Shown here: positions 16,138 through 39,293 of the stretch, one piece after another | How positions within the stretch are numbered: the stretch's first letter is position 1 | Layout: each line of letters opens with the position of its first letter | Assembly: GCA_964430265.1 (NCBI GenBank) | Contig: CAYSEI010000004.1 | Location: forward strand, 45,872-109,871 | DNA length: 64,000 nt | Direction: 5' to 3' | From: an uncultured Pseudomonadales bacterium | Lineage (GTDB): Bacteria > Patescibacteriota > Microgenomatia > UBA1400 > CAYXSR01 | Position numbers and translations under genes: made by a program | The notes under the pieces: model-generated | Seen by the model: the letters and a program-made list of their open reading frames with translations, nothing else | Database searches by the model: none | Told to the model about the DNA's origin: nothing

Positions 16138-17634
16138 ATGAAAATCAACAAAAGAGCAGTTATTACCAGTATTGGTATTTTGGCATTATTTGCACTTACC
16201 CGTCTTATTGGGATCCTAAAAATTCCTATTTTTACTGATGAGGCAATTTATCTGCGCTGGAGCCAGGTTGCTTCTTATGATGCATCCCAGCGTTTTATAT
16301 CCTTAATCGACGGCAAACAGCCCTTATATATGTGGGTGACAATGTTTGTTATGAAAATAATGGATGCGCCTTTGCTAGCAGGTAGGCTGGTGTCTGTATT
16401 TTCCGGTCTGGGTGCTTTAGCTGGCATGTTTTTGCTGACAAAAGAACTTTTCAATAAGAAAACAGCTTTTTTAAGCAGCTTTTTTTATGTTATATTTCCG
16501 CTTTTTATTTTATATGACAAAATGGCGCTTGTTGATGCCATGCTGACAATGTTTGGCTTCTGGAGCCTCTGGCTGGCAATTAAAATGGCTAAAAAAAGAA
16601 AACTGGTTTATGCACTGCTTTTGGGCGGAACATTGGGCGGTGCTTATCTGACAAAGTCTCCTGCTGTATTTTTTACTATCTTAAGCCTTTTATCGGGAAT
16701 ATTTATTAATTTTACAAAAGAGAAAAAAAGTAATCTAAAAAAAGCAGGACAGTTTATCGGCTTGTTTTTAATTGCTTTTGTTATTTCACAAGGTTTTTAT
16801 AATATCCTCAGGTTATCGCCGATGATGCATATGATTGCCAGGAAGAATTCTACATTTGTCAGAAGCTTTTCTGAGGTATTAAAAGATCCCTTTTTCAATT
16901 TCTGGGGTAATTTCAAAGGAGTAGGCAAGTGGATAATTGGTTATGTTTCAATACCTTTAATTATTACTGCAGTCTTTGGAATTTTTTACAAACCAGTGAA
17001 AAAATGGCGGGAGAAAATGTTTTTGTCAGCCTGGTTTTTTGGCCCGCTTCTTGCCTATTCATTATTTGGAAAGGTTTTGTACCCAAGATATATTTTGTTT
17101 TTTACTCCTTCACTGGTAATTTTTGTTAGCTACACGCTTATGCAGATGAAAAACAAGCTTAAAAATAAATTGTTTTATGTTTTGCTTTTCTTGTTGTTGC
17201 TTCCCAATATTTATACTTCATTTAAGTTGATAACCGATCCTTTAAATGCGCCTATACCTACAGCTGACAAGGGCCAATTTTTTAACAGCTATTTTGCCGG
17301 ATACGGAGTGGAAGAGGTAAATAATTATTTTAAAGAGGAAATAAAGAATGAGGAAGTTGTTTTGTATACGGAGGGGACATTTGGCCTTCTTCCTTATGCA
17401 GTTGAATTATATTTTTATAATAATCCTAATATCCGTGTTATTGGAATCTGGCCATTAGAAGAAGTTCCCGGTAAAAAAGTTAAATATATTCCAGGTAAAG
17501 AAAACTATCTGGTAACTAATGAAACACAGGAAATTCCCCAGCAGTGGCCCTTAGAGAAAATATTTGAAGTGCAAAAAGGTAAAAGTGAGGACAGATTAAG
17601 GTTATTTAAAATAATTGCTGATGAGAATAAATAA
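16138..17634 (+). CDS. PMT_2/ArnT-like (GT39/GT83-type) GT-C glycosyltransferase
   Basis: First-loop DE motif IFTDEAIYLRW, multi-TM N-terminal region and soluble C-terminal domain. 498 aa. Confidence 0.55.
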   Translation: MKINKRAVITSIGILALFALTRLIGILKIPIFTDEAIYLRWSQVASYDASQRFISLIDGKQPLYMWVTMFVMKIMDAPLLAGRLVSVFSGLGALAGMFLLTKELFNKKTAFLSSFFYVIFPLFILYDKMALVDAMLTMFGFWSLWLAIKMAKKRKLVYALLLGGTLGGAYLTKSPAVFFTILSLLSGIFINFTKEKKSNLKKAGQFIGLFLIAFVISQGFYNILRLSPMMHMIARKNSTFVRSFSEVLKDPFFNFWGNFKGVGKWIIGYVSIPLIITAVFGIFYKPVKKWREKMFLSAWFFGPLLAYSLFGKVLYPRYILFFTPSLVIFVSYTLMQMKNKLKNKLFYVLLFLLLLPNIYTSFKLITDPLNAPIPTADKGQFFNSYFAGYGVEEVNNYFKEEIKNEEVVLYTEGTFGLLPYAVELYFYNNPNIRVIGIWPLEEVPGKKVKYIPGKENYLVTNETQEIPQQWPLEKIFEVQKGKSEDRLRLFKIIADENK

Positions 17635-20005
17635 ATATAAAAAAGCTTTAAGCAGAATTCTTCCCTTTTTAATTATTATTCTATATGTGGTTATAGTATT
17701 TCAAAAGTATATTTTTAAAGGGCAATTACCGATTTCTGTTAATCTGTTAATGGCTTTTTATTTCCCTTTTTTCCTAGGCGGATTTAAAGAATACTCACCC
17801 TGGGTCAGGTATAAGGGTTTTTTAAATTCGGATGTAGTGAGACAAGGCCTCCCTTGGAAAATACTAGCTTTTGAACAAATTAAAAATTTAAAGCTTCCAG
17901 TTTGGAACCCCTATACTTTTTGCGGTAATCCTTTAATGGCTAATATACAGTCAGCAGTATTTTATCCGCTTAATTTTATATTTTTAATATTTTCAATGCC
18001 GGTTGCCTGGAGTTTGTTAGAGATAATAGGTTTGTTTTTAATGCTTTTGTTTATGTACCTCTTTTTAAGAGAATTAAAAATTTCCAAAACTTCAGCTTTG
18101 TGGGGTGCAATTGTATTTGCCAGTACCCAGTTTCTTATTGTTTGGCTGCAGTTGAATATTGTTATTCATACTTTGTTATGGCTGCCTCTTGCTTTATTTG
18201 CTTTTGAGCGTTTTAAAAAAAATTCAAAAAAACGGTTTCTTTTCTTATTTGCTTTATGCTTTTTTATGTCGATTTTGGGCGGACATCCGCTGTCTTTTAT
18301 TTATGTTTCATTAATTAGTCTTTCTTATATTCTTTTTACGTCTAATAAAAGAAATTTTTTGACTTTTTTGTTTTTAGTATTTGTTGTTGTGTTATTAGCT
18401 AGTTTTCAACTTCTTCCAAGTATAAAAATATATCAGCATGCAGTAACCGGTGGAGAGTTTGGCAAAGAGGTTTTTAAGATTTTAACCATTCCTTGGAAAA
18501 ATCTGCCAACATTTTTAGCTCCTGACTATTTTGGAAATAATGCTACATGGAATAAGCGGGGGCATGGAGGTACAGGAGACATGACACCGTTTATGGGGGT
18601 AATTACCTTGGCCTTAGCACCTTTGGCTTTTTTCAAAAAAAATAAGAAAAAAGTCTGGTATTTTACAGCTATTTCTTTATTTGGTTTTCTGCTTGCTTTT
18701 GATAGTCCGTTAAATTGGATAATTAGGGAGGCAAGGATTCCTATGCTTTCAAGTACTGCTCCTGCTAGAGCGTTAATTGCGACGTACTTTGGTTTTGCAG
18801 TTCTTTCAAGCTATGGTCTGGATTTAATTTTGAAAAAGAAAATACCACTTAAAAAAGTCTTGATATCTATAGGAATCTTGACATTAACGTTTGGATTACT
18901 TTTTCTTTTAACTGTTAATAAGGCTTTTTTTATTGAGAATCCGGATGTAAAAAGCAAGTTTTATATTAGTTTCAGAAATATGATTTTGCCTGGAGGAACA
19001 TTATTTGCATCTTTTCTGTTTATACTGGCTTATTACAAATGGAAGAAAAAGTTTCTGGTTTATTTATTAATTCTTTTTAATAGCTTGTTTTTCCTTTATA
19101 ACTTTGACAAGATTCTAACTTTTGGTTCCAAAAAGTTTTTTTATCCCCAACATAAGCTGATTACTTTTTTACAAAAACAAAATAATTGGCGTTTTCATGG
19201 TTCTGATGCTGGAAAAATTGATACAAATTTTCAAATTCCATATAAAATATACACTCCTGTCGGATATAATGTTTTGCGTATTAAATATTATGCGCAGTTA
19301 GCAGATGCAGCCTTTAATACTGAACTTGAATATTCAGATGCTTTTTCTCGCGCCGATGCTTTTTTCCCTTCACAAAACGATCCCAATCGCGATAAATTCT
19401 TTAATCTTACAGGAGTTAAATACATAACTAACAAACTGGAAAACCCCAAACCGGATAACACATGGGAACAAGATGTTGCAAAATTTCCCGAAGATAAATA
19501 CAAGCTTGTATGGCAGGAAGAGCATTTCCAAGTATATGAACGTAGAAATGTGTATCCCCGTAGTTTTATTGCAACGCAGTCAGCATTAATCAATAATCCG
19601 CAAAAAGCAATTGAAAAATTTTATGATCCTGATTTTGATGTGCGCAATACTTTAATTTTATCTGACATTGCGGAAAAACCGCATTTAAATGCAAAAGAAG
19701 GTAAAGCAGAAATTATTGATTACCAGCCTAATAAGGTAACTATTAAAATCCAAACAGACGGAAAAGCCTTGCTTTTCTTGTCAGATGCCTATTATCCTAA
19801 CTGGCAGGCAAGAGTTGATGATAAAAAAGTTGAAGTTATACGCACCCACCATGCTTTCCGTAGTGTTGTAGTTCCAAAAGGTGAACACACAGTGGAATTT
19901 TTTTATTATCCTAAAGAGTTTTATTATGGAGTTGGAGTTAGTTTTTCTGTTTTACTAAGCTTAGGTATATATTTTGTTATTAGCTGGAAAAAAGGCCAAT
20001 GGTAA
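17621..20005 (+). CDS. YfhO-like large membrane glycosyltransferase (GT-C)
   Basis: ATG 17621 (track start TTG 17615). 795 aa, N-terminal polytopic region with WNPYTFCGNPLMAN and FYPLNFIF. C-terminal module YYPNWQARVDDKKVEVIRTHHAFRSVVVPKGEHTVEFFYYP is typical of the YfhO family. Confidence 0.55.
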   Translation: MRINKYKKALSRILPFLIIILYVVIVFQKYIFKGQLPISVNLLMAFYFPFFLGGFKEYSPWVRYKGFLNSDVVRQGLPWKILAFEQIKNLKLPVWNPYTFCGNPLMANIQSAVFYPLNFIFLIFSMPVAWSLLEIIGLFLMLLFMYLFLRELKISKTSALWGAIVFASTQFLIVWLQLNIVIHTLLWLPLALFAFERFKKNSKKRFLFLFALCFFMSILGGHPLSFIYVSLISLSYILFTSNKRNFLTFLFLVFVVVLLASFQLLPSIKIYQHAVTGGEFGKEVFKILTIPWKNLPTFLAPDYFGNNATWNKRGHGGTGDMTPFMGVITLALAPLAFFKKNKKKVWYFTAISLFGFLLAFDSPLNWIIREARIPMLSSTAPARALIATYFGFAVLSSYGLDLILKKKIPLKKVLISIGILTLTFGLLFLLTVNKAFFIENPDVKSKFYISFRNMILPGGTLFASFLFILAYYKWKKKFLVYLLILFNSLFFLYNFDKILTFGSKKFFYPQHKLITFLQKQNNWRFHGSDAGKIDTNFQIPYKIYTPVGYNVLRIKYYAQLADAAFNTELEYSDAFSRADAFFPSQNDPNRDKFFNLTGVKYITNKLENPKPDNTWEQDVAKFPEDKYKLVWQEEHFQVYERRNVYPRSFIATQSALINNPQKAIEKFYDPDFDVRNTLILSDIAEKPHLNAKEGKAEIIDYQPNKVTIKIQTDGKALLFLSDAYYPNWQARVDDKKVEVIRTHHAFRSVVVPKGEHTVEFFYYPKEFYYGVGVSFSVLLSLGIYFVISWKKGQW

Positions 20006-21648
20006 GGGGAAAAATAAAAGATATAATTGCTTTTTTACTTATTTCTTCAGTTAGTTTACTAATCTTATTGCCCCTTTTTAAAAAAGGATTTTTAATAACT
20101 GATGACGGTGATCTACTTTTGATAAGGCTGGGTGGAGTTATTCGTGCAATCAGGAATTTACATTTTCCTGTCAGAATGCTTGATCTATACCATGGCTATG
20201 GTTATCCAGTAATGAATTTTTTATATCCACTGCCCTTTTATTTTGCTTCATTAATATATTTTTTTCTGCCTATAGGTTTGATTGCTACATTTAAGCTGTC
20301 AATTTATTTGTTTAGTGTTTTAGCAGGTATAGGCGCTTATTTGCTAGTCAACCAGGTTTCAAAGAATAGAATGTTGGCTTTTCTAGCTTCTGTTTTGTAT
20401 TTATCCGCTCCCTACCGGTTAATAGCAATTTTTTATCGGGGTTCAATAGGAGAAGTTTTAGCACATTCTTTACTGCCATTTCTTTTTTACTGGATTTATT
20501 TATACAAAGAAGAAAATAAAAACATTTATTTAATAATTTTTAGTTTTTTTGTTTTCTTATTAATTATTTCACATAACGTTATTGCTCTGTTAAGTTTGCT
20601 ATTTTTAGTCTTTTATAATTTTTTTGTTTTAAAAAACAAAAAAGTATGGAAGTATTTAATTCTAGGAATTTTATTAAGTGCATTTTTTTCTGTTCCCGCA
20701 CTAGTGGAAAGAAAGTATACACATGCAGTAAATATTAGTTTATCAGACGCCGGCAGCAGGCTGATTTTATTAAAAGATCTATTTCTTAATACATTTAGCT
20801 TAAAAAAATATTTACCCAATATTGAAAAAGTATTTTATTTAAATATTTCATATCTGTTTATTTTAGTTTTTTCATTGACTGCTTTGTTTTTAATAAAAAG
20901 AAAAAAAAAGAAACAAACAAAAAATATTATTTTTATTTCAGCTTTAATTTTTTTAATTATCTTTTATGTTTCTACTTTTTCCCAATCATTCTGGAGACTG
21001 GCTAAGCCATTGGTTCCATATATTCAGTTTCCTTGGAGGCTTTTAAGTTTATTGGGATTACTGTTTATTCTTTTAATGAGTCATGTATATAAATTTTATA
21101 TGAATAATAAAATAAACAATGATAAAAAAAAGATTATATTCTGGATTTCAATCATATTTTTGTTTTTAAGTTCTGTTTTTTCTATTTACAAAAGCTGGCA
21201 AATGCTTAGGTACAAACAGGTTGATGATGCATATTATTTAACCAACCAGTCAAGTAGTACTACCCAAAATGAATACACGCCGATATGGGTAAAAGAATTT
21301 CCTAAAGAAATGCCTCAGAATTTGATTGAAACAAGTCCAGAAGCAAAAATTAATATTTTAAAAAGAAAAACTCAAAAAATTGTTTTCAGGATTGATGCAA
21401 AAGAAAAAACCTTAATTGCAATCAACAAACATTATTTTCCGGGTTGGACATTATATGTTGAGAATGAAAAAAAAGAATTTAACAAAAAGAATGCTCAAGG
21501 TATAATTAATTTTCAGTTAAACAAAGGGAAGCATCAAGTTGAATTAATTTTTAAAGAAACCAAATTAAGACTTTTTGCTGATTTGATTTCAATTATTGTC
21601 TTTGTTTATTTGTTAAAATTAGGTTGGCAAAAAAATGAAAATTCTTAA
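19999..21648 (+). CDS. YfhO-related membrane protein, short form
   Basis: HFPVRMLDLYHGYGYPVMNFLYPLPFYF N-terminal loop and C-terminal FPGWTLYVENEKKEF...KGKHQVELIF module, homologous to the YfhO-like C-terminus. Paralog of ORF 21635. Confidence 0.45.
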   Translation: MVRGKIKDIIAFLLISSVSLLILLPLFKKGFLITDDGDLLLIRLGGVIRAIRNLHFPVRMLDLYHGYGYPVMNFLYPLPFYFASLIYFFLPIGLIATFKLSIYLFSVLAGIGAYLLVNQVSKNRMLAFLASVLYLSAPYRLIAIFYRGSIGEVLAHSLLPFLFYWIYLYKEENKNIYLIIFSFFVFLLIISHNVIALLSLLFLVFYNFFVLKNKKVWKYLILGILLSAFFSVPALVERKYTHAVNISLSDAGSRLILLKDLFLNTFSLKKYLPNIEKVFYLNISYLFILVFSLTALFLIKRKKKKQTKNIIFISALIFLIIFYVSTFSQSFWRLAKPLVPYIQFPWRLLSLLGLLFILLMSHVYKFYMNNKINNDKKKIIFWISIIFLFLSSVFSIYKSWQMLRYKQVDDAYYLTNQSSSTTQNEYTPIWVKEFPKEMPQNLIETSPEAKINILKRKTQKIVFRIDAKEKTLIAINKHYFPGWTLYVENEKKEFNKKNAQGIINFQLNKGKHQVELIFKETKLRLFADLISIIVFVYLLKLGWQKNENS

Positions 21649-23347
21649 TTTTTTTAAAAAACACTATTACTTATTTTTCTTGTTGTTGCTTGCAATATTA
21701 GCTGGCCGGCCCCTTTTTCAAGCTGGTTATTTTTCTTATCATGATTATCAGCATCTTGCCAGGTTTGCGGAGTTGGATAAAGCAATTAAATCCGGTCATT
21801 TTCCAGTTCGCTGGAGTGAAAATTTAGGGTTTGGTTACGGTTATCCGATTTTTGTCTTTTATCCGCCTTTAATTTATTATTTGGCAGAAATTTTTCATTT
21901 AATAGGGTTTTCATTTATTGTTTCTTTTAAAATGATGCTCTTTTTAGGCTTTTTGCTGTCTGCTTATTTTATGTATTTATTGGTCAAAGAATTATTAGGA
22001 AAGCATGCAGGTTTTTTGTCTAGTGCATTGTATCTTTTTGTTCCCTATAGGGCAGTAACTATCTATGTCAGGGGAGCAATGGCGGGATTTTTTTCTTTTG
22101 TTTGGATTCCGGCTGTTTTTTGGTCCCTCATAAAGTTTGACAAAACCAAAAAAAGAAAATTCCTTTTTTTGTCTGCTTTATTTACCAGCCTAGTTATTAT
22201 TACTCATAGTTTAATTGCTCTACCTTTTGCTTTTTTTCTTGCTTGTTTTGTTTTTTACTTATTTTTTAAAAGTGAGTTTAAGAATATAAAAGAGTATTTG
22301 ATTTATGGACTGCTGACTTTAGGAATGAGCTGTTTTTTCTGGCTGCCTTCTCTGGCATTAAAAGAATACACTTTAGTGGACAGGATTCTTACAACTGAAT
22401 TAGCAAATTATAAAATCCATTTTGTATACCCTCAGCAGTTGTGGGATTCACTATGGGCTTTTGGTGGTTCAGTAGAAGGCTTATTGGATGGAATGTCTTT
22501 TAAGATTGGAAAGTTACATATTATTTTTGCAGGGCTTTCCATAATCTTATTAGTATTTGCCAATAAAACTAAAAAGAAAATAAAAAAATATATGTATATA
22601 TTTTCAATCTTTTTAATTGTATCGATATATTTAACTTTGAAAATCAGCAAACCTGTTTGGGATATATTCAAACCTTTATGGTATCTGCAGTTTCCCTGGC
22701 GTTTTTTACTTTTTATCAGCCTTTTTATTTCAATACTATCAGGCTTCTGGCTGACTTTTATTAAGAAAAAAAAGATAAGAATTTTATTTTTAATCTTAGT
22801 TATTACTTTGCTTTTGCAGTATAATTTAAAACTTTTTTGGCCCCAGTTTATCTTTCCTGAAAAAAAAGATGCAGACTATATAAACCAAGAACGGATTAAA
22901 TGGGAAGTAAGTAAGTCTTCTTTTGAATACCTTCCCAAAGGAGTAGAACTAAAAATAGGGGAAAACAATACTTCTACAGTAGCAATTTCAAAAGATGAAG
23001 TGGCAAAAGGAATAGGGAATATTGTATCAGGTAAAGGAAGTGTTAAAATAGTAATGGATAAGCCACATAATAATTTACTGGAAGTCAAAGCAGAGGAACC
23101 GCTTGTTTATCGTTTTAACACCACTAATTTTATCGGCTGGAAAGCATATTTAAACGGAAAGCGGATTTCTATTCAGGATGATAATAAGTTAAAATTAATA
23201 ACTGTTAGTGTTCCAAAAGGCGAATACAGGCTTAAACTGGTTTTCAAAAATAGGATTATACAGATGTCTAATTACATATCATTATTAAGTTATTTGATTT
23301 GGGGTTATCTTTTTTATGGACTCCTCCGAAACAAGAGAATACACTAA
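21635..23347 (+). CDS. YfhO-related membrane protein, short form (paralog of 19999)
   Basis: HFPVRWSENLGFGYGYPIFVFYPPLIYY and C-terminal FIGWKAYLNGKRISIQDDNKLKLITVSVPKGEYRLKLVF. Confidence 0.45.
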   Translation: MKILNFFKKHYYLFFLLLLAILAGRPLFQAGYFSYHDYQHLARFAELDKAIKSGHFPVRWSENLGFGYGYPIFVFYPPLIYYLAEIFHLIGFSFIVSFKMMLFLGFLLSAYFMYLLVKELLGKHAGFLSSALYLFVPYRAVTIYVRGAMAGFFSFVWIPAVFWSLIKFDKTKKRKFLFLSALFTSLVIITHSLIALPFAFFLACFVFYLFFKSEFKNIKEYLIYGLLTLGMSCFFWLPSLALKEYTLVDRILTTELANYKIHFVYPQQLWDSLWAFGGSVEGLLDGMSFKIGKLHIIFAGLSIILLVFANKTKKKIKKYMYIFSIFLIVSIYLTLKISKPVWDIFKPLWYLQFPWRFLLFISLFISILSGFWLTFIKKKKIRILFLILVITLLLQYNLKLFWPQFIFPEKKDADYINQERIKWEVSKSSFEYLPKGVELKIGENNTSTVAISKDEVAKGIGNIVSGKGSVKIVMDKPHNNLLEVKAEEPLVYRFNTTNFIGWKAYLNGKRISIQDDNKLKLITVSVPKGEYRLKLVFKNRIIQMSNYISLLSYLIWGYLFYGLLRNKRIH

Positions 23348-24764
23348 AAATACTGTCAAAGGAATTACTGCTTTAGCTGGAAGAACCTTGTTTTCGCAAG
23401 TAGTGGCGGTCCTTGCTACTTTTGGTCTGACTATATTTCTTTCTCCGGCTGAATACGGTGTGTTTTTTGCAGTATCCGCTTTAATTAACTTTTTAGTTTA
23501 TTTTTCCGATATTGGCCTGGCAGCTGCCTTGGTGCAGAAAAAAAAGATAACTGATAAGGAAATTTCAACAACCTTTGTTATACAGCAAATTCTGGTTGTA
23601 TTACTTAGCGCGGTTTCTTTGCTTTTAACCTCAAGAATTGCCCAGTTTTATAACCTTGGGGAGGCAGGGAAATATCTAATTATGGCTTTAATTGCCAGTT
23701 TTTTCCTTTCTTCTTTAAAAACAATTCCCACGATACTCTTGGAGAGGGAACTTAAATTTCACAGGCTGGTAATACCCCAAATTTTGGAGCAGGTGGTTTT
23801 TTATTCAGTGGCAGTATTTCTTGCTTGGAAGGGAAAGGGCATTAGTTCTTTTACTTATGCTGTTTTATTAAGAGGGATTATTGGAGTAGTTTCAATCTAT
23901 ATTATTAAACCGTATATTCCTAGACTACATATACAAAAAAGTGTAGCTAAAAACTTAATTGGAACTGGTGCATTTTTTCAAGCCAACTCAATACTTGCGC
24001 TTCTAAAAGATGACTTAATGGTGCTTTTTCTGGGTAAAATTTTGCCTATGACTCAAGTAGGATATATTGGATGGGGGCAGAAGTGGGCCTTTTTCCCGTT
24101 AAAATTTGTACTTAACAATGTGAATAAAGTTTCTTTTCCCGCTTATTCCCGCGTACAAAATACAAAAGAATTGCTTAAAAAAGCATTGGAAAAAACTATT
24201 TACTGGATGTCAGTTTTAATATTTCCAATGATGACGGGTATGATTCTTAGTGTGCCTTTGTTTATTGAATTTTTCCCCCAATACAGTAAATGGCAGCCGG
24301 CAGTGATTATACTTGTATTTTATTGTTTGAACGGTATTTTTGGATCCTTGTCCAATATATTTACTAACATGCTTAATGCAACGGGAAGAATTAAAACTAC
24401 TTTAAAGATTATGGTTGGAATGACGATTTTAAACTGGGTATTAACCTTAACAGGCATTGAAGTTTTTGGCTATACGGGTGTAGCGGTTGCTTCCTGGCTG
24501 GTGGCTGTTTTTGGCATGGTTGCAGGTATTCATGTTAAAAAGTTTTTGGAATTCAGTTTTTGGAAGCATATTTTTCCTGCCATTGTAAGCACCTTACTGA
24601 TGATTCTGGTTTTTCTGGGATTAAAACATATTTTAATCAGCAATTTAATAACTCTTTTTATGGGAATTGCTCTAAGTGCAATTGTATACATATTAAGTCT
24701 GATTATCTTTTTTAAAAAAATGTTTTTAAAAGAATTGGATTTTGTGATTAAACAATGGAGATAA
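23316..24764 (+). CDS. Wzx-type polysaccharide/oligosaccharide flippase (MOP superfamily, PST family)
   Basis: 482 aa with about 12 to 14 predicted TM segments. N-terminus ITALAGRTLFSQVVAVLATFGLTIFLSPAEYGVFFAVSALINFL is typical of Wzx/RfbX. Confidence 0.65.
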   Translation: MDSSETREYTKNTVKGITALAGRTLFSQVVAVLATFGLTIFLSPAEYGVFFAVSALINFLVYFSDIGLAAALVQKKKITDKEISTTFVIQQILVVLLSAVSLLLTSRIAQFYNLGEAGKYLIMALIASFFLSSLKTIPTILLERELKFHRLVIPQILEQVVFYSVAVFLAWKGKGISSFTYAVLLRGIIGVVSIYIIKPYIPRLHIQKSVAKNLIGTGAFFQANSILALLKDDLMVLFLGKILPMTQVGYIGWGQKWAFFPLKFVLNNVNKVSFPAYSRVQNTKELLKKALEKTIYWMSVLIFPMMTGMILSVPLFIEFFPQYSKWQPAVIILVFYCLNGIFGSLSNIFTNMLNATGRIKTTLKIMVGMTILNWVLTLTGIEVFGYTGVAVASWLVAVFGMVAGIHVKKFLEFSFWKHIFPAIVSTLLMILVFLGLKHILISNLITLFMGIALSAIVYILSLIIFFKKMFLKELDFVIKQWR

Positions 24765-27163
24765 AAAAACACTGGATTATTTTTTTAATCTTAATAGTTA
24801 TAGTCCTAGTGGTTTTTCGCCAAGTTTTTTTAAATAACAGGATTCCTTTTTCTTCAAATCTATTAGTCTCTCTTTTTCAGCCTTGGTTTTCCCAGTACGG
24901 TAGTACTGTTCCTAATAAGGCAATCGGCTGGGATAACCTAAGAATTTTTTATCCTCAGAGAGTATTTGCGCAAAATTTATTAAGCAATTTTAAAATTCCT
25001 TTTTGGAATCCTTATAATTTTTCCGGAAATGTGCATTTGGGCAATTCACAGACAGCAACTTTTTATCCGCTTAATATTCTATATTTCATTTTTTCTTCAA
25101 TTAACACCTGGACAATATTGGTTATTTTAGGCTTTTTAATGACAGGATATTTTACCTATTTATTTGTGAATAGTTTATTGGACAACAAAAAAGCTGCTTT
25201 ATTATCTACTTTTGCTTTTATGTTTTCCGGCCCTTTAATGGTAAGGGTGGAGGATGGTTTGGTAATAATGCATTCTATTTTATGGCTGCCCTTGGTTTTA
25301 TATGGCATTGAAATGTTTTTCAAATTAAAAAAGAAAAAATACTTGTTCTTAGCATATCTGGGTATTTTTTCTTCTATTACTTCCGGATGGTTTCAGTTTA
25401 CCTTTTATTTACTTGCCTTGTCCTTTGTCTATTCTTTTTATAAATTATTAAAGACTAAATGGATAAAAAATAATATTAAAAGTCTGCTTATCTTCAAACT
25501 TTTCTGGATTTTTACTTTGGGGAGTACAGCTTTTCATTTTCTTCCTTCAGTTCAAGCCCTTTTTCTATCTCCAAGGGGTGGAGGAGCGCCTCAGCATTTT
25601 ATTGACCAGTTTTTATTGGGTAGAGAAGGATGGTTTACTTTAATTGCACCTGATTTTTTTGGCAACCCGACAACTTATAATTATTTTGGCAGTTCTTTTT
25701 ATAAGGAAAGAGTATTGTTTATCAGTATAGTTCCTCTATTTTTTGCCTTATTTCAAATGTTTGACAATTTTTTCAAAAATAAAAGGCTGAGCCTTTGGGC
25801 ATATATAAGTATTTTTTGCTTTTTGCTTGGATTTAGAAATCCTTTAAGCATTGTTTTACTTAAATCGGAAATACCAGTAATCTCCAGCTTTGTTCCCAGT
25901 CGTATTTTTATTGTCAGTAGTTTTAGTTTAAGTGTATTAGCTGGTTATGGACTAAAAAACTTTTTAAACTGGCTTAAAAATGCTAAAAAAGCCTCCTGGC
26001 TGTCTTTAAGCTTGACTTCAGCACTCTTTATTTTCTTTTTTCTCAGTATTTTAGCTGTTTTTTATCCGCAAGTACCTTTGAATGTTTATGATGAATTAAG
26101 AAGCGTTGGGGAAAATAACCTGAATACTGCTTTAAGAAATACAATTCTGCCATTTGCCAGCTTTTTGACTGCTTTGGGCCTGATAGGAATTGGCTTGTCC
26201 TTTAAAAAGAAAGTGACTAAATTTATCTGGCTGTCTATTACATTAATTCCTTTACTTTTCGGCATATATTATGCAGACAAATATTTATACTTTTCTGAAA
26301 GAAAATTTGTTTTCCCTCAGCATCCGGTTTGGGAGCAGCTGCAAAAATACAAAAATGATCATTACCGTTTCTGGTCATACGGAAAAGGCCATGTAGAATC
26401 TAATTTTTCCACTTATTATCAGGTCTATTCTCCTGAAGGGGTGGATGCTATGTATCCGCGCTGGTATGCACAGCTTTTTAGCGGCTGTAAGACTGAAGGA
26501 AAATTTACCGAGGAGGTAATGCGTATTGAAGCGGAAGTCTGCGGTGCAGATTCTTTTTATGAATCTGAAAACCATTATCAGCAAAGGCTTTTAGATCTTT
26601 TAAGCGTTAAATATATTACAAAGCTGACAAACAAGAAAGTTTTAGAAAATGCAAGTTTACTTTGGGAAAACGATAAATGGCAGATTTGGGAAAGACAAAA
26701 TATCCAGCCTCGTGCCTATCTGGTTTCTGACTATGTTTTAGCTGCAAATGAAAAAGACTCATTGGAAAAAACGTATTCTCAAAAACTTGATTTAAATAAA
26801 CAAATTGTTTTGCAAAAAGATCCGCAAATAGAAAAAAATGGTCAAAGCATTAAAAAAGCAGAAATAATTGAGTACAAGCCGAATAAAGTGAAAATTAAAT
26901 CTCAAGCAGAAAAAGAAGCTCTTTTATATTTATCAGACACGTATTATCCGGAATGGGAAGCCTTTGTGGACAATAAAAAAACAGAAGTTTTAAAAGCAAA
27001 CCATGCTTTCCGCGCCATAGTTGTGCCTGAGGGAAATCACGAAGTAGTTTTCAAATATACGGGAAAAGCATTTAAAAAAGGACTTGTTATTAGTTTTGTT
27101 AGTATAATAGGATTGACAATTCTGTTTATAAAAAAGGATTTTACAAATGAAAAAAAAGATTAA
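24755..27163 (+). CDS. YfhO-like large membrane glycosyltransferase (GT-C)
   Basis: 802 aa. N-terminal WNPYNFSGNVHLGNSQTATFYPLNILYFIF. C-terminal YYPEWEAFVDNKKTEVLKANHAFRAIVVPEGNHEVVFKY. Confidence 0.55.
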   Translation: MEIKKHWIIFLILIVIVLVVFRQVFLNNRIPFSSNLLVSLFQPWFSQYGSTVPNKAIGWDNLRIFYPQRVFAQNLLSNFKIPFWNPYNFSGNVHLGNSQTATFYPLNILYFIFSSINTWTILVILGFLMTGYFTYLFVNSLLDNKKAALLSTFAFMFSGPLMVRVEDGLVIMHSILWLPLVLYGIEMFFKLKKKKYLFLAYLGIFSSITSGWFQFTFYLLALSFVYSFYKLLKTKWIKNNIKSLLIFKLFWIFTLGSTAFHFLPSVQALFLSPRGGGAPQHFIDQFLLGREGWFTLIAPDFFGNPTTYNYFGSSFYKERVLFISIVPLFFALFQMFDNFFKNKRLSLWAYISIFCFLLGFRNPLSIVLLKSEIPVISSFVPSRIFIVSSFSLSVLAGYGLKNFLNWLKNAKKASWLSLSLTSALFIFFFLSILAVFYPQVPLNVYDELRSVGENNLNTALRNTILPFASFLTALGLIGIGLSFKKKVTKFIWLSITLIPLLFGIYYADKYLYFSERKFVFPQHPVWEQLQKYKNDHYRFWSYGKGHVESNFSTYYQVYSPEGVDAMYPRWYAQLFSGCKTEGKFTEEVMRIEAEVCGADSFYESENHYQQRLLDLLSVKYITKLTNKKVLENASLLWENDKWQIWERQNIQPRAYLVSDYVLAANEKDSLEKTYSQKLDLNKQIVLQKDPQIEKNGQSIKKAEIIEYKPNKVKIKSQAEKEALLYLSDTYYPEWEAFVDNKKTEVLKANHAFRAIVVPEGNHEVVFKYTGKAFKKGLVISFVSIIGLTILFIKKDFTNEKKD

Positions 27164-27992
27164 ACTATTTTCAATTGTTTTAAACTACAGCCGGCCTAAA
27201 GAGACTATCAATGCGGTAAAATCTCTACAAAAACAGGAAGGTGAATTTAAGCAACAGATTGTGGTTGTAGACAATTCAGAAAAGGGAAATATCAGTTTAA
27301 AAGAGTTTGAGGATCAGGAAGATATCCATTTGATCAAAATAGAAAAAAACCTTGGTTACAGCAAGGGAAATAATAGGGGAATAGAGTATGCCTTGGAAAA
27401 AGAAGCAGACTATGTTCTTCTTTTAAATGATGATGCATACTTAAGCAAGGATTGTATAGATAAAATGCTTAAAATAATGGAGAAAAGCAAAAATACAGGA
27501 ATTGCTTCTCCCAAAATATTTTTTGCTCCGGGATATGAGTATCACAAGAAGAAATATGAAAAAGACGATAAAGGCAAAGTTATTTGGTATGCCGGCGGAG
27601 TAATTGATTGGGATAATATACTGGCATCACACCAAGGTGTAGATAAGATTAATAAAAGCAACTTTGACAAGATAGAAAAAACTGATTTTGCTTCAGGATG
27701 CGTAATGCTGATAAAAGCGGAAGTTTTTAATAAAATCGGACTACTGGATCCCAAGTACTTTATGTACTGGGAGGACGTTGATTTTTGCCAGCGTGCAAAA
27801 CAAGCGGGCTACAAAGTTATATATATTGGTAAAGCAGAGGCTTGGCACAAGAACTTGGGAACAGTCAAAGGAGAAGAAAATGAGTTAAAAGAAAAATATA
27901 TGGCTTGGTCACGTCTATTGTTTGCTTTTAAATACGCACCTCTTAAAACAAAACTTCTTTTAATGAAAAAGTTTCTATCTACCTGGGTTTAA
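27147..27992 (+). CDS. GT2 family glycosyltransferase
   Basis: FSIVLNYSRPKETINAVKSL...VVVDNSEKG...LLNDDAY (GT-A fold DxD). 281 aa and soluble. Confidence 0.7.
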   Translation: MKKKIKLFSIVLNYSRPKETINAVKSLQKQEGEFKQQIVVVDNSEKGNISLKEFEDQEDIHLIKIEKNLGYSKGNNRGIEYALEKEADYVLLLNDDAYLSKDCIDKMLKIMEKSKNTGIASPKIFFAPGYEYHKKKYEKDDKGKVIWYAGGVIDWDNILASHQGVDKINKSNFDKIEKTDFASGCVMLIKAEVFNKIGLLDPKYFMYWEDVDFCQRAKQAGYKVIYIGKAEAWHKNLGTVKGEENELKEKYMAWSRLLFAFKYAPLKTKLLLMKKFLSTWV

Positions 27993-29604
27993 GCATGCGA
28001 ATGTTATCAAAGTTTGTATTGCTGACAGGAGTATATTTTTCTTCCAGTTCCGTAAGAATTTCTTGGTATGATCCTGGAAATTTATTCTGATAATTATCGT
28101 ATGCAGACTGATTAAACAAAAAAATGTCCGCCTTTTTATTTCTAATAGTATCAAGCATTGCATTATTCAGACGCTTTGGCCAATCCATCCAGGGATAGTA
28201 ATAGATGAGAATGTTTGCGGGTATGCGATCCGGGAAGTAGAATACTGAAGTTGTTAAATTAACCTGAGTGATTTTTGCGTTCTTGTCAGTGTTTTCTTTA
28301 ATATATTGGGTAACTTTTGGGTATGGGTCTTTAAGAATAAAAGAAGTGCTGAACTTAAATTCAGGTCTGTTTTTTGTATAGTAAGCAAATAAAAGAAAGC
28401 ACAAGAATAAAAAGGGGAGGATTTTTTTCTTTTTTAGCTGTTTTATTGCATACACGGCAAAAAAACCCGCCAGCCAGAAGCTGTAGATATAAAAAGCGGT
28501 GATATGAAACTTTTCTCCAAAGCGCAGCCTAGCGGAAAAAAGAAAGAATGCACTTAATGCAAGTGCTTGTAATTTCTTTTTTTTAAGAAAAACAAACAAT
28601 CCTAGAAGGATAAAAACAAATACAAAAAATTCAAATGTAAACAGCTGATTGTAGTTTTGTTCGTTTATCATAAATAAATGCTTTTTAAAGGTTTGAAAAT
28701 CAAGGGTTTTTATAAAGTCTAAGCTGATTCCCTTGAGTGCTTTTAAATAGGTTGACCCCACAATTACAAGCGTTTTAGATAACTGGTAAAAATGGTTAAG
28801 AAAATCAATGATAAACTTTTTTATTAGACCAGGGAATTTAGGACCGGTTATACCGTATCTAATTGCATAAAATTCAGCGTTGAAAACAAATAAGGACCAG
28901 AATGCAGGATAAAGCGCATTTTTTAAAAGATAATAAAAAATAAATACAGCGGTTCCAATTATATTGGGAAGGAAAAAATATTTTAAATTAGTTTTGTTTA
29001 AGGAGTCCTTTTTGTTTTGGTAAAAATATATTGCGAAAAAAGGTAAAAAGGAAAGCGAATAAATTATTGAATTGGCAATAGTGGTAAACATAAAATATGC
29101 CAATAAAAGAAGTTCGGGTTTGGAAAAACTAAGTTTTTTATCCTGCCAAAGCTTGTTTATAAACATTAAATAAAAACCCAGTAATGAGTAAGCAAAAAAA
29201 GTTTCCGAAGAAAACTGCTGGCCCCCAAACAATATTAGACTCCAAGAAATTAAAGGCAGGCAAATAATTGTAGCCTTACGGATTTCCTTGTCCAGAATTT
29301 TAATCATTAATATCCAGAATATTAAGGCGTAGAAAACCATAAAATATCTGTAAATAATAAGTTTATGCACAAAAAGTTCAATAAAAGCACTGATGTAATA
29401 CATCAAAGGGAAATGGTGTGAGAAAATATCCTTATAAAGGATACGTCCTTTGGTAATCAGCCATCCAATGGCAAAATTATCCATTTCGTCAGGATAGAAA
29501 CCCTTGTCAAAAGTTATCAGTCTGATTTTCATCCAGATGCCCAAAAACAATAAGGGGAGAACTAGCGGAAATAATTTGTTTTTTATCTTATTTTGCATTA
29601 TCAT
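27979..29604 (-). CDS. polytopic membrane protein, putative GT-C-type glycosyltransferase
   Basis: 541 aa with at least 12 hydrophobic segments. First-loop FYPDEMDNFAIGW (acidic D/E motif). Only minus-strand gene within the 5-45 kb plus-strand block. Confidence 0.4.
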   Translation of the reverse strand: MIMQNKIKNKLFPLVLPLLFLGIWMKIRLITFDKGFYPDEMDNFAIGWLITKGRILYKDIFSHHFPLMYYISAFIELFVHKLIIYRYFMVFYALIFWILMIKILDKEIRKATIICLPLISWSLILFGGQQFSSETFFAYSLLGFYLMFINKLWQDKKLSFSKPELLLLAYFMFTTIANSIIYSLSFLPFFAIYFYQNKKDSLNKTNLKYFFLPNIIGTAVFIFYYLLKNALYPAFWSLFVFNAEFYAIRYGITGPKFPGLIKKFIIDFLNHFYQLSKTLVIVGSTYLKALKGISLDFIKTLDFQTFKKHLFMINEQNYNQLFTFEFFVFVFILLGLFVFLKKKKLQALALSAFFLFSARLRFGEKFHITAFYIYSFWLAGFFAVYAIKQLKKKKILPFLFLCFLLFAYYTKNRPEFKFSTSFILKDPYPKVTQYIKENTDKNAKITQVNLTTSVFYFPDRIPANILIYYYPWMDWPKRLNNAMLDTIRNKKADIFLFNQSAYDNYQNKFPGSYQEILTELEEKYTPVSNTNFDNIRMLKPR

Positions 29605-29640
29605 CTAATTTAGTACCTGATATAATATTTTATCAAAAAG

Positions 29641-30711
29641 ATGAATAAGATTGGAATATTCAGTCCCTACTTAGACAGTTTAGGCGGCGGGGAAAAGTAT
29701 TTTTTAACTCTTGCAGAGTGTCTTTCAGGCGAATATGCTGTGGAAATTTTTTGGAAAGACAAGCAAATTATTAAGCAAGCTGAAGAGCGTTTTAATCTTG
29801 ATTTAAGCGGAGTTACTATAAACAAAAACAATTACCGCTTATTCAAAAAAAGGAATTTTTTAAATAAGCTAAAAGAGATAAGACAATACAATTCCCTTTT
29901 TTTTCTTTCGGACGGAAGCATACCCTTTTTATTTGCAAAGAATAACTTTATTCATTTTCAGGTTCCTTACCAAAATTTAAGGACTAGTTTATTAACTAAA
30001 GCCAAGCTGTCACTGGTAAATACACTTTTTTGCAACTCGAAATTTACCAAAAAACACATTGACACAAAACTTGGAGTTAATAGCAAAGTAATATATCCTC
30101 CAGTTAATGTCAATGATTTTAGTCCCTTGGAAAAAGAAAATATAATTTTGTCGGTGGGAAGATATGACAATTTGGAACAGAATAAAAATCAAGCACTAAT
30201 GATTGACGTTTTTAAGCAAATGCAAAAAAAAGAAAACAACAATTGGAAATTTATTTTAGCCGGAGGAGTGAGTACGCCTGAAGGAGAAAGGAATTTTAAA
30301 AAATTGCAAGAAAATGCTGTAGAAGAAGAAATTGAGCTCTACAAAAATATTGGATTTAAGAAGCTTAAAGAGCTGTATGGGAAAGCCAAAATATATTGGC
30401 ATGCGGCCGGACACGGACAAGATTTAAGAATTAATCCGCAAAAAGCAGAGCATTTTGGCATAACAACCGTTGAAGCAATGGCCTCGGGATGTGTTCCTGT
30501 AGTTATTAATGCAGGCGGCCAAAAAGAGATTGTAAAACATAATTTAAACGGGTTTCTATGGAAAACTGAAAAGGATTTAATAACAATGACATTAAAATTG
30601 ATCAAAGACAAGAATTTGTGCAAAAGCATGAGTAAACAAGCATTACAGGATAGTAGAAAATATAGTAAAGACAGGTTCTGTCAACAAATAAAAGAACTAT
30701 TAGCTAAATAA
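29641..30711 (+). CDS. GT4 (Glycos_transf_1) glycosyltransferase
   Basis: EHFGITTVEAMASGCVPVVINAGGQKEIV matches the GT4 EX7E region. 356 aa. Confidence 0.75.
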   Translation: MNKIGIFSPYLDSLGGGEKYFLTLAECLSGEYAVEIFWKDKQIIKQAEERFNLDLSGVTINKNNYRLFKKRNFLNKLKEIRQYNSLFFLSDGSIPFLFAKNNFIHFQVPYQNLRTSLLTKAKLSLVNTLFCNSKFTKKHIDTKLGVNSKVIYPPVNVNDFSPLEKENIILSVGRYDNLEQNKNQALMIDVFKQMQKKENNNWKFILAGGVSTPEGERNFKKLQENAVEEEIELYKNIGFKKLKELYGKAKIYWHAAGHGQDLRINPQKAEHFGITTVEAMASGCVPVVINAGGQKEIVKHNLNGFLWKTEKDLITMTLKLIKDKNLCKSMSKQALQDSRKYSKDRFCQQIKELLAK

Positions 30712-30727
30712 TTATATAAATAAACTA

Positions 30728-32965
30728 ATGATTATAAATAAAAAAAACATCTGGATTATTATATCCCTAGCTGCAGTAATTTTATTTTTTAGTTTTTTGT
30801 TAATTAAAAAAGGAGTACCTTTACCAGCAGATGCTTTAGTTGGCATGTATCATCCCTGGAGGGACTTGTATAAAAAGGAATTTCCAGTAGGTTATCCTTA
30901 TAAAAACTTCTTAATTACAGATCCGGTTAGGCAGCAGTATCCCTGGAAAACTGCAGTCATAAACCAGTTTAAACAAAAACAACTGCCGCTTTGGAACCCT
31001 TATTCTTTTTCCGGTTATCCTTTGCTGGCAAATTTTCAATCAGGTGCTTTTTATTTTATTAATATACTTTTTTTGACATTTAATTTTAATTTAGGATGGA
31101 GTTTGTATATTATTTTGCAGCCAGTTCTTGCGCTTCTTTTTATGTATTTGTTTTTAAAAGATAAAGTTGATAGATTTTCAGCATTAATAGGGAGTATTGC
31201 TTTTTCTTTTTCCGGGTTTATAGTTGCGTGGTTTGAGTGGGGGAATGTTGGTCATACATTTATTTGGCTACCATTGATTTTTTATACATTAGAAAAGATT
31301 ATTAGAAAAAAAAGTTGGAAATACGCCCTTTTGTTTATTTTTGCTTTAAGCAGCAGCTTTTTTGCCGGCCATTTACAAACCGCTTTTTATGTTATTTTAG
31401 TTAGTGTTTTATATAGTTTATCAATGATTTTTAAGCTAAAAAAGACAAGCAAAATATTAGCTATAAAAAGAATTTCAATTGCTTTTTTATTCTTCACAAT
31501 CTTAACTTCAATCCAATGGTTGCCAACATTAAATTTAATCCAAAAAAGCACCCGCGGATTAAATGTGCCCAAACTACTTTTTCTGCCGTTTAAACACTTG
31601 ATACAGATGTTTTTTCCTGACTTTTTTGGTAATCCGGCTACTTTGAATTATTGGGGTGAATGGAATTATTTAGAATATATTTCCTATATTGGTATTATTC
31701 CAATATTTTTTGCACTTTATTATATTTTCAGTAGTTCTTTTAGTAAAAATCGCTTTTTTAAAATAACATTAATAATAAGTATTTTATTTGCGACCAATAA
31801 TCCCATTGCTAAACTTCCATTTGCTTTAAACATTCCTTTTATATCCACATCTTCGCCAGCAAGACTTGTATCATTAATATGTTTTTCCAGTGCAGTTTTG
31901 TCAGCATATGGAGCCAAGAAATTTTTAAAACAAAAAAAGATAAAAGCCCTTTTAATTTTTACACTTTTTATATTTATATCCTGGGTAGTTGTATATTTTC
32001 TTGATGCAAGACCTCACAGCAAATATTTACGCTACAACGTAACCAAAAGAAATCTGATCCTGCCAACGGCAATATTTTTAACTTTTGCTTGCGGATTTTT
32101 TATTAAAAATATCTTAAAAAAGTTTTTAAACAAAAAAATAGCAAAATATCTTGAATATTTATTTTTGCTGGGAATATTAATTATTGTTTTATTTGACGGA
32201 TTTAGGTTTTTATCTAAATTCAACCCCTTTATTAAAAAAGATTTAATTTATCCGGATACAAAAATTTTAAGTTATCTGCAGGAAGATAAAGAAAAATTTA
32301 GAGTTATTGCTCCGGATGAAAGAATCTTAATACCTAACAGCGCAATTCCATACAAAATAGAAACTGTACAAGGATATGATCCTTTAATGCTTAAAAATTA
32401 TGTTTCTCTTGTCCAATACTCTGAAACAGGTGAGTTTAATAAAAAGTACCCTAGAAGCAGGATAGTACAACCGCAGAATATAGAAACTGGATTAATAGAT
32501 ATCTTAAATGTCAAATATTTACTTACATTTGATGAATTTGGAGAAGAATTTGAAAAAATAATGGAGGAAGGAGAAACCAAGCTTTATAAAAACCCCAATT
32601 ATCTTCCGCGAATATATTTTGCAAACGAATTGCAGTTTTTAGAAAATAAAGAAGAAATATACAAAAAAATTATTAATGAACAAAAAACAACTACTGACAG
32701 GATAGTCTATAAAATAGGACAGCAAGAGAATAAAGTATGTGATCAAGCTGAGATCCTGGAAAGTAATATTAAAGCAAATCAAATAACTGTCAAAACAAAT
32801 AACAGCAATGATTGTTATTTAGTTGTTTCTCAAGTTTATTATCCGACTTGGAGTGTAATTGTGGACAATAAAAAGAAAAAAATTGAACAAGTAAACTCAA
32901 TATTTCCTGCAGTTAAACTTAATAAGGGAGAACACGAAGTGACATTTAAAAATAATTTGCTATAA
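30728..32965 (+). CDS. YfhO-like large membrane glycosyltransferase (GT-C)
   Basis: 745 aa. WNPYSFSGYPLLANFQSGAFYFINILF. C-terminal YYPTWSVIVDNKKKKIEQVNSIFPAVKLNKGEHEVTFKN. Confidence 0.55.
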   Translation: MIINKKNIWIIISLAAVILFFSFLLIKKGVPLPADALVGMYHPWRDLYKKEFPVGYPYKNFLITDPVRQQYPWKTAVINQFKQKQLPLWNPYSFSGYPLLANFQSGAFYFINILFLTFNFNLGWSLYIILQPVLALLFMYLFLKDKVDRFSALIGSIAFSFSGFIVAWFEWGNVGHTFIWLPLIFYTLEKIIRKKSWKYALLFIFALSSSFFAGHLQTAFYVILVSVLYSLSMIFKLKKTSKILAIKRISIAFLFFTILTSIQWLPTLNLIQKSTRGLNVPKLLFLPFKHLIQMFFPDFFGNPATLNYWGEWNYLEYISYIGIIPIFFALYYIFSSSFSKNRFFKITLIISILFATNNPIAKLPFALNIPFISTSSPARLVSLICFSSAVLSAYGAKKFLKQKKIKALLIFTLFIFISWVVVYFLDARPHSKYLRYNVTKRNLILPTAIFLTFACGFFIKNILKKFLNKKIAKYLEYLFLLGILIIVLFDGFRFLSKFNPFIKKDLIYPDTKILSYLQEDKEKFRVIAPDERILIPNSAIPYKIETVQGYDPLMLKNYVSLVQYSETGEFNKKYPRSRIVQPQNIETGLIDILNVKYLLTFDEFGEEFEKIMEEGETKLYKNPNYLPRIYFANELQFLENKEEIYKKIINEQKTTTDRIVYKIGQQENKVCDQAEILESNIKANQITVKTNNSNDCYLVVSQVYYPTWSVIVDNKKKKIEQVNSIFPAVKLNKGEHEVTFKNNLL

Positions 32966-38703: not shown

Positions 38704-39293
38704 TGAAAAAAAAGTATATTTTTTTACTAGTGTTAATAATTATTTTACAATTAATAACACTTAGACCTGTATTTAGATGCAGTCGTTGGGATAATCAATT
38801 CCATTTTAGTAGCCTGAATTTAAAACTGCAGATAAATTCAGCCATTTTTGCAGATCAAAATGTGCCTAACTTGTTAACCCGCGCTATGCATAACAAGATA
38901 ACCTATTTTGTGCTAGATGTTTTTCGCAGATATATGTACTTTACTGATTTTAAATTTTTATTAAGCTATTTATTACCTGTTGGATTAATTGGTTTTTTAA
39001 CTGCTATTTATTTTATTTTTAAAAATAAAATATTTAAATGTAAATATAGAGATTTCTGGGTAATTATTTTTTCTTTTTCAATACTGACACATTTATTTGA
39101 AATTATATTTAATCCCGGATTGTCTTTTATCTTAAAAACAACAATCTTATTATTACCCCATTATTTATTGTCCAGTTATGGAATTTATAAACTGTTGGAG
39201 AAAAGAACTATTTTAGTTATTTTACTGCTTATTATAAGTGTAATGTGGCTACAGGTTTATTCCCAAGAGATACTTAATTTTTGTATGGTATGA
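38703..39293 (+). pseudogene. truncated remnant of a PMT_2/ArnT-like paralog (middle TM portion only)
   Basis: GTG 38703 (track gives TTG 38691). The 197-aa product ...TRAMHNKITYFVLDVFRRYMYFTDFKFLLSYLLPVGLIGFLTAIYFIFKNK aligns with the HNRR...F...G..Y...K mid-section of its neighbours. It lacks both the N-terminal DE loop and the C-terminal domain. Confidence 0.35.

Follow-up and report, generated by a model that had tools for sequence, protein, structure and literature searches.

The window analysed here, a 64,000-nucleotide (nt) stretch of contig CAYSEI010000004.1 (GenBank assembly GCA_964430265.1) deposited as an uncultured Pseudomonadales bacterium, is one glycan locus, and at 17621-32965 it features a block with five genes for membrane proteins of the YfhO glycosyltransferase (GT) superfamily, named L1, S1, S2, L2 and L3 according to their long (L) or short (S) form (Table 1). 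A sequence-only reading of this DNA had described three long and two short YfhO-family proteins, interleaved with a Wzx flippase of the MOP family, and all five open reading frames (ORFs) were found at the positions given, on the plus strand, among the 51 window ORFs of at least 150 amino acids (aa). The flippase assignment likewise stands, with Pfam scores of 170 bits for Polysacc_synt_3 and 62 bits for Polysacc_synt and 13 hydrophobic segments identifying a MOP/Wzx-type protein. For L1, an alternative upstream TTG start lies at 17615 (796 aa), and a public gene call (P0122) starts at 17621. Neighbouring plus-strand genes from L1 to the GT2 gene ending at 27992 overlap by 7-32 nt, an arrangement compatible with co-transcription; the proposal of a single operon fails for the block as a whole, which also contains GT2 and GT4 genes and is not one uninterrupted operon because the gene at 27979-29604 lies on the opposite strand. 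Promoter and terminator scans gave a signal close to that of shuffled sequence, and an Rfam search returned zero matches.

All five proteins are members of families already catalogued, and represent no new kind of enzyme or system. Against a Pfam gathering score of 28.5 bits for YfhO (PF09586), the long forms L1, L2 and L3 score 63, 64.9 and 114.9 bits, respectively, and all 120 L1 homologues among the matches listed carry the same domain. S1 and S2 are matched instead by PF10131 (PTPS_related; gathering score 26.4 bits) at 63.3 and 42.2 bits, covering positions 1-324 of the 621-position profile; the YfhO profile matches S1 below threshold and in the tail only (24.6 bits, profile positions 743-828 of 835), and gave no match to S2 in the Pfam scan. 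Membership of YfhO, which had been claimed for all five, thus holds for the long forms, with S1 and S2, as judged from profile comparison, being relatives at the level of the superfamily and not members by curated threshold. Homology between the short and long families extends through the membrane core (hhalign probability 99.9%, E 1.1e-31, 347 columns) and the tail including its terminal helix (99.1%, E 1.9e-18, 96 columns). Within the window, BLASTP aligns the long forms end to end in every pairing (28-33% identity, E 3e-75 to 7e-113, the latter for L2 against L1), S1 with S2 (27% identity, E 7e-41), and S2, over its N-terminal part, with the N-terminal stretch of each long form (E 4e-8 to 5e-5). 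Public annotation of some homologues reads ‘YfhO family protein’ or ‘6-pyruvoyl-tetrahydropterin synthase-related protein’, and PF10131 has been listed as a GT-C relative, its function not known (PMC7801869). The only NCBIfam matches of L1-L3 are PgfM1 and PgfM2 (E 2.5e-7 to 3e-8), at ~30 bits against cut-offs of 1400-1500.

An N-terminal loop, HFPVR(M/W)...GYGYP, had been singled out as distinctive of the short forms; it is present in S1 and S2 and is a hallmark of a 115-sequence short family. Its consensus, GQFPVRF..RLN.GYGYPV.NFLYPLP, is aligned by hhalign with the long-form motif G.IPLWNPY.FSG.PLLAN.QSAVFYPLN, and the loop is therefore a diverged version of the YfhO motif rather than a new element.

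The C-terminal module common to the five proteins, ~80 aa long, was recovered as predicted: it is visible in their MAFFT alignment, in pairwise BLASTP (S1 aa 436-533 against L2 aa 687-785, E 3.6e-5), in the hhalign comparison of the tails, and with hidden Markov models (HMMs), one made from 115 sequences of the short family and one from 121 of the long family, whose matches in the window (E 1e-5 to 1e-35) are exactly these five of its 51 ORFs, every other ORF scoring E 0.05 or worse. All five do carry the module, but the YYP.W signature ascribed to each is replaced by NFIGW in S2. Pfam YfhO stretches in L1, L2 and S1 fall at profile positions ~740-835 (of 835), and because it maps to these last positions the module is the canonical C-terminus of the YfhO model, not a new element. 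With a profile made from the five copies of the module in the window, 27,869 representatives were found at E <=1e-3 among 1.84 billion proteins; of the best 150, those that are full-length, single-unit proteins carry the module ~30 residues before their C-terminal end. In L3 the chain stops right after the β-sandwich; truncation was considered and rejected, as the positional orthologs of L3, which also follow a GT4 gene, are likewise anchorless in six other genomes, making this end a feature of the clade.

AlphaFold2 models were obtained for one protein of each form, both with high scores (S1: predicted local distance difference test (pLDDT) 94.2, predicted template modelling score (pTM) 0.94; L1: pLDDT 94.0, pTM 0.94). 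The S1 model comprises a helical membrane core to approximately aa 400, an eight-strand β-sandwich (443-518) and a terminal helix (522-543); the L1 model comprises a core (1-498), an alpha/beta domain (~500-690), the β-sandwich (694-762) and a terminal helix (765-790), so that eight strands followed by a terminal helix appear in both. Foldseek comparison with the PDB returned, for each model, 12 matches at E <=1e-3, all of them GT-C glycosyltransferases: STT3, PglB and AftD for S1 (E 1e-5 to 5e-4, followed by AftA at 1.1e-3 and ArnT at 1.4e-3), and AftD as best match, then STT3, ArnT and PglB, for L1 (E 4e-7 to 5e-4). The models thus assign the GT-C fold to both S1 and L1. Searched by sequence, neither the short-family profile nor L3 had a PDB match at E up to 1. 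Searched alone, the β-sandwich matched glycoside hydrolase accessory domains (GH30, PelA, fucosidase) weakly (E ~0.6), and these matches were not used. Three architectures are represented in the block: core, alpha/beta domain, β-sandwich and anchor in L1 and L2; the same without the anchor in L3; and core, β-sandwich and anchor in S1 and S2, which lack the alpha/beta outer domain (~190 aa in the long forms).

Conserved residues are found in both families and kept in the window copies. Across the 121-sequence alignment of the long family, D71, P78 and W95 are invariant; in the 115 short-family sequences R43, R59, G68 and P70 are invariant and D36 near-invariant (at least 90% of sequences). Both D71 and D36 are located at the start of the first outer-loop helix, and GT-C enzymes carry a catalytic acid at the first outer loop (PMC8035078), suggesting these residues as putative catalytic aspartates.

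Table 1. Coordinates of the five YfhO-superfamily genes, their C-terminal modules and putative catalytic codons, and the associated genes of the window
Feature	Position	Strand	Length	Remarks
L1	17621-20005	+	794 aa	Long YfhO-family GT-C glycosyltransferase
S1	19999-21648	+	549 aa	Short form; PF10131-type GT-C core, YfhO-type β-sandwich, membrane helix
S2	21635-23347	+	570 aa	Second short form; separate, positionally conserved ortholog group
L2	24755-27163	+	802 aa	Long YfhO-family GT-C with terminal membrane helix
L3	30728-32965	+	745 aa	Long YfhO-family GT-C, no terminal membrane helix
Module of L1	19682-19921	+		Module HMM; strands aa 694-762 in model
Module of S1	21307-21561	+		Module HMM; AlphaFold2 model
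Module of S2	23018-23251	+		Module HMMs, E 1e-19 and 3.5e-5
Module of L2	26828-27076	+		Module HMM
Module of L3	32738-32956	+		Module HMM
L1 Asp71 codon	17831-17833	+		Putative catalytic residue
S1 Asp36 codon	20104-20106	+		Putative catalytic residue
Wzx-type (MOP) flippase	23316-24764	+	482 aa	
GT2, soluble, rhamnosyltransferase-like	27147-27992	+		Glycos_transf_2 (Pfam)
Polytopic membrane protein	27979-29604	-	541 aa	Accessory cluster member; at least 7 hydrophobic segments
GT4, cytoplasmic	29641-30711	+		Glycos_transf_1, 101 bits (Pfam)
GT2 glycosyltransferase	32974-33882	+		Directly 3' of L3
GT2 + GtrA/DPMS membrane domain fusion	9316-10467	+		Candidate polyprenyl-phosphate-sugar synthase (donor supply)
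GT2 + PMT_2-type GT-C fusion	10464-12653	+	729 aa	Pfam, NCBIfam
GT2a	12662-13426	+		Candidate polyprenyl-phosphate-sugar synthase; first gene of conserved core
MptA/MptB-like GT-C membrane protein	13386-14561	+	391 aa	10 membrane segments
Two PMT_2-type GT-C genes	14572-16134, 16138-17634	+		Directly upstream of L1; Pfam
Five tandem PMT_2 paralogs	33879-42632	+		After GT2 32974-33882; 29-38% identical

In both families the named homologues belong to Curtissbacteria, Levybacteria, Chisholmbacteria, Roizmanbacteria, Gottesmanbacteria and further Patescibacteria, apart from one in a Pacearchaeota-labelled bin, and the named best matches of the MetK encoded in the window are from Shapirobacteria and Patescibacteria. 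By these relationships the host is a Microgenomates-type bacterium of the Candidate Phyla Radiation (CPR), not a Firmicute. Many third-party-assembled records of metagenome-assembled genomes with the cluster (loci L001, L003, L004, L006, L007 and others) are titled ‘uncultured Gammaproteobacteria’ or ‘Pseudomonadales’, and these titles look like placeholder or wrong labels.

A scan of species-representative genomes identified 343 loci encoding an S1 relative, of which 80 were retrieved and their ORFs mapped to the window ORFs by BLASTP, features being counted in the 40 loci with full 10-kb flanks. A shared gene order emerges, running GT2a, MptA-like, PMT_2 (of the 16138 type), a long form in some loci, a further PMT_2 in some loci, S1 and S2, followed by GT2, Wzx, two GT2 genes, an optional third short form or GT2, an optional GT4, and a long form. 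S2 is present in 40/40 loci, as is Wzx, downstream of S2; S1 is found in 39, the MptA-like gene in 38, GT2a and at least one long form in 37 each, orthologs of the 16138-type PMT_2 in 29, and a counterpart of the GT2 at 27147-27992 in 27, with S1 and S2 adjacent in 30. The scanned representatives do not include the genome from which the window comes; the closest locus, L001 (45% identity in S1), is collinear with the window across 10464-30728, the minus-strand gene included.

Distance clustering separates the short family, which had been suspected to form a distinct, uncharacterised clade and does so, into three clades, those of S1 and of S2 and a third, each tied to gene position, the S2 clade tracking the order S1>S2>GT2/Wzx. 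Among the long forms, L3 groups with those that come after GT4, and L2 with the copy after Wzx in locus L001, the position directly after Wzx being common only to these two. The third short-form clade, found at GT2c>S>L or PMT16>S>L in loci L009, L023, L030, L034, L045, L065, L074 and L076, is present in many Microgenomates clusters and not in this window. A recent local gene expansion was rejected as an origin for the five genes, the paralogs being 27-33% identical and their clades following conserved positions; because clades follow gene position across species, the five genes are ancient, positionally fixed paralogs. The sequence-only reading had taken the five divergent copies as a sign of several distinct decorations on one polymer, or of several acceptor polymers. 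They are positionally conserved members of a cluster in at least 40 species, and as each paralog keeps its own place across species, they would serve distinct, non-redundant steps rather than act as interchangeable decorators.

Families that neighbour one another in the window also occur fused elsewhere, which suggests functional coupling. S1 relatives of ~900 aa carry PF10131 and PMT_2 in one chain; such ORFs are found in locus L044 (9860-12676, 939 aa) and locus L077 (9944-12709, 922 aa), and Chisholmbacteria homologues of S1 have an extra PMT_2-type extension. Metagenomic proteins combine YfhO, PF10131 and PMT_2 (P0245, 3329 aa) or YfhO and PMT_2 (P0243, 3051 aa). A further protein, P0242 (1670 aa), joins PF10131 to DUF3105; the giant fusions are putative and may include gene-calling artefacts.

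Candidate supply genes lie in the same window. Enzymes of nucleotide-sugar metabolism lie at 1.5-9.3 kb of the window, and approximately 19 GT-C genes are encoded: three YfhO, two PF10131, 12 PMT_2-type, one PIG-V-like and one MptA/MptB-like. Five window GT2s, those at 9316, 10464 (N-terminal domain), 12662, 42648 and 52521, have polyprenyl-phosphate-sugar synthases (PgfS, ArnC, AglJ, PpgS) as top NCBIfam matches, all below cut-off. A GtrA-type domain is found in the window only in fusion with the GT2 at 9316, and the flippase inside the block is Wzx; a one-to-one pairing of GT2s with YfhO-type proteins was not apparent.

Taken together, these observations favour, with a probability of roughly 60%, a reading in which the five proteins are YfhO-superfamily GT-C enzymes of a conserved CPR envelope-glycan cluster, each of which adds, on the outer side of the membrane, a sugar carried on lipid phosphate to a surface glycan. 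Characterised YfhO enzymes transfer sugars carried on C55 lipid phosphate (C55-P) outside the membrane in a three-component logic (PMC5836110, PMC8035078), their partners being a CsbB/GtlA-type GT2 that makes the polyprenyl-phosphate sugar and a small flippase of the GtrA/GtcA family. In the cluster, GT2s would load polyprenyl phosphate with sugars from nucleotide sugars at the inner membrane face, while cytoplasmic GT2 and GT4 enzymes would build a lipid-linked oligosaccharide that Wzx would flip. At the outer face, each YfhO-type enzyme may then use its outer-loop aspartate (D71 in L1, D36 in S1) to attach a single lipid-carried sugar at a particular site of the surface glycan as it grows, the membrane-surface β-sandwich, together with the alpha/beta domain in the long forms, possibly helping to position the acceptor.

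Several points weigh against this reading. Foldseek does not separate users of lipid-phosphate sugars (ArnT, AftD) from users of lipid-pyrophosphate oligosaccharides (STT3, PglB), and all matches of the GT2s to lipid-phosphate-sugar synthases fall below the NCBIfam equivalog cut-offs. Domains of a priming phosphoglycosyl transferase, of Wzy or of a ligase were not recognised in Pfam scans of the window. The loci compared were chosen by similarity to S1, biasing the sample to cluster-bearing genomes, so that the presence of S1 is not independent evidence, and the orthology of upstream long forms is blurred in distant genomes, where best matches vary among the three window copies.

Protein O-glycosylation is a rather unlikely alternative, in which YfhO-type and PMT_2-type enzymes would stepwise glycosylate secreted or surface proteins (S-layer, pili or Ser/Thr-rich regions) in the manner of PMT enzymes or of the Streptococcus mutans Pgf machinery (PgfS, PgfM1, PgfM2), the latter modifying the adhesins Cnm and WapA (PMC5856776). 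It would account for PgfM1 and PgfM2 being the only NCBIfam matches of the long forms, for PgfS among the top matches of the cluster GT2s, for the many PMT_2 genes and for the place of STT3 and PglB at the head of the structural matches of S1; the PgfM scores, however, lie far below cut-off, a gene for a candidate acceptor protein was not seen in the window, and the association of Wzx with GT4 and rhamnosyltransferase-like genes points to a lipid-linked oligosaccharide or polysaccharide. It is improbable that any of the five, foremost S1 and S2 as neighbours of Wzx, is a polymerase, ligase or oligosaccharyltransferase moving a Wzx-flipped lipid-pyrophosphate oligosaccharide en bloc: the linkage of S2 to Wzx in all 40 loci, the lack of a recognised Wzy or ligase domain in the window and the use of lipid-pyrophosphate-oligosaccharide donors by STT3 and PglB, the best structural matches of S1, speak for such a role, but in Foldseek these two lead AftD and ArnT by little (E 1e-5 against 3e-4 to 1e-3), and characterised YfhO relatives use lipid-phosphate monosaccharides. 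Teichoic-acid decoration as in Firmicutes, the frame of the sequence-only reading, with different sugars moved from C55-P onto lipoteichoic acid (LTA), wall teichoic acid (WTA) or several such polymers, is similarly doubtful, for although the long forms pass the YfhO threshold and characterised YfhO proteins glycosylate LTA in Bacillus subtilis and Staphylococcus aureus or WTA in Listeria (PMC5836110, PMC8035078), the host is a Microgenomates-type CPR bacterium, Pfam scans of 50 of the 51 window ORFs revealed no teichoic-acid synthesis domain (TagF-type or LtaS-type), and Wzx with GT2, GT4 and ~19 GT-C genes resembles glycan assembly rather than decoration.

Beyond the envelope-glycan reading lies a bolder proposal, put forward tentatively, that the product of the cluster is an envelope polymer specific to the CPR and put together for the most part on the outer side of the membrane by the GT-C series, with the anchored β-sandwich handling the acceptor, in a logic analogous to mycobacterial arabinogalactan or lipoarabinomannan synthesis; if true, an uncultured lineage of bacteria would have a major cell-wall component not described before. 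To our knowledge, the surface chemistry of the CPR (Patescibacteria) is essentially undescribed, and it probably governs attachment to host cells. A literature search on GT-C arrays of CPR or Microgenomates bacteria found nothing relevant and no paper describing this cluster. The present analysis adds that the short forms are related to YfhO and lack one outer domain, that long forms are either anchored or anchorless, and that each of the five YfhO-type genes has a fixed, non-redundant place in a cluster conserved among Microgenomates, providing a defined candidate gene set for a conserved CPR surface glycan and a functional hypothesis for PF10131, a Pfam family of no known function. For the biology of CPR envelopes the finding is a useful lead, if one that uncultured hosts make hard to test.

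Among the associated genes, the rhamnosyltransferase-like GT2 at 27147-27992 matches TIGR01556 at 90 bits, below the NCBIfam cut-off. The polytopic protein encoded on the minus strand at 27979-29604, 36 nt from the divergent GT4 gene, has no Pfam or NCBIfam match; its hhalign resemblance to the PMT_2 paralogs is weak (probability 81% over 67 columns; 11% against the short family), and homologues are present in six related loci (L001, L002, L011, L038, L055 and L068). Upstream of the block, the GT2-GtrA/DPMS fusion at 9316-10467 has PgfS, AglJ, ArnC and PpgS as top NCBIfam matches, all below cut-off. The adjoining fusion at 10464-12653 features a lipid-phosphate-sugar-synthase-like GT2 (aa 6-135) and a PMT_2-type domain (aa 301-454) with ~10 membrane segments, so that donor synthesis and transfer would share one polypeptide; in most related loci, the GT2 part stands alone as a protein of ~240 aa encoded between S2 and Wzx. 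The protein at 13386-14561 has no Pfam match, and its matches to TIGR03459 (MptA; E 5e-15) and to MptB (E 1e-6) do not reach the cut-offs; MptA and MptB are polyprenol-phosphomannose-dependent mannosyltransferases of mycobacteria and corynebacteria.

Downstream, a 200-aa membrane protein with four segments (38691-39293, plus strand) lies among the tandem PMT_2 paralogs without a family match, and could be a GtrA-like flippase, though no profile supported that. Two adjacent PMT_2 genes at 47452-50678 (plus strand) are 67% identical, indicating a recent duplication. A 415-aa membrane protein with eight segments (60842-62089, plus strand) also has no family match. At 56121-57728 (minus strand), adjoining a DUF7796-like ORF (57695-58522, minus strand), a 535-aa soluble protein has weak matches, at its N-terminus to a sugar-1-phosphate nucleotidyltransferase and further along to an APH-type kinase, and may be a sugar kinase/nucleotidyltransferase fusion serving a salvage route to a nucleoside diphosphate sugar.

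Among the closest known systems is YfhO itself, the LTA N-acetylglucosamine (GlcNAc) transferase of B. subtilis and S. aureus and, as Lmo1079, the WTA GlcNAc transferase of Listeria. Common to YfhO and the long forms are the GT-C core with its outer-loop aspartate and the C-terminal β-sandwich, followed by the terminal helix in L1 and L2 and not in L3, and candidate GT2 lipid-phosphate-sugar synthases are found in the same locus here. There, one gene is paired with csbB and the flippase is a stand-alone GtcA, whereas here five paralogs, one group of them without the terminal helix, share a single cluster with Wzx in a CPR host with no teichoic-acid genes seen nearby. S1 and S2 exceed the PF10131 threshold, but match only the first half of that profile, their tail being a YfhO-type β-sandwich with anchor, and at ~550 aa they form positionally conserved ortholog groups in Microgenomates.

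Two further systems have features in common with the cluster. In the S. mutans Pgf locus, two YfhO/PMT-like membrane paralogs, each with its own step, are accompanied by a GT2 and a sugar epimerase (PgfE), and the NCBIfam models of its proteins match L1-L3 and the cluster GT2s weakly, far below equivalog cut-offs; it differs in having only two GT-C genes, no Wzx and known adhesin acceptors. In mycobacteria and corynebacteria, many GT-C enzymes (AftA-D, EmbA-C, MptA/B and PimE) use polyprenyl-phosphate sugars to lengthen and branch a single envelope glycan on the outer side of the membrane, a parallel reflected in AftD as the best PDB match of L1 and in the MptA/MptB-like ORF at 13386. This resemblance is one of logic and fold only, at 9-15% sequence identity, and the families deployed here (YfhO, PF10131 and PMT_2) are clustered with Wzx in a different host.

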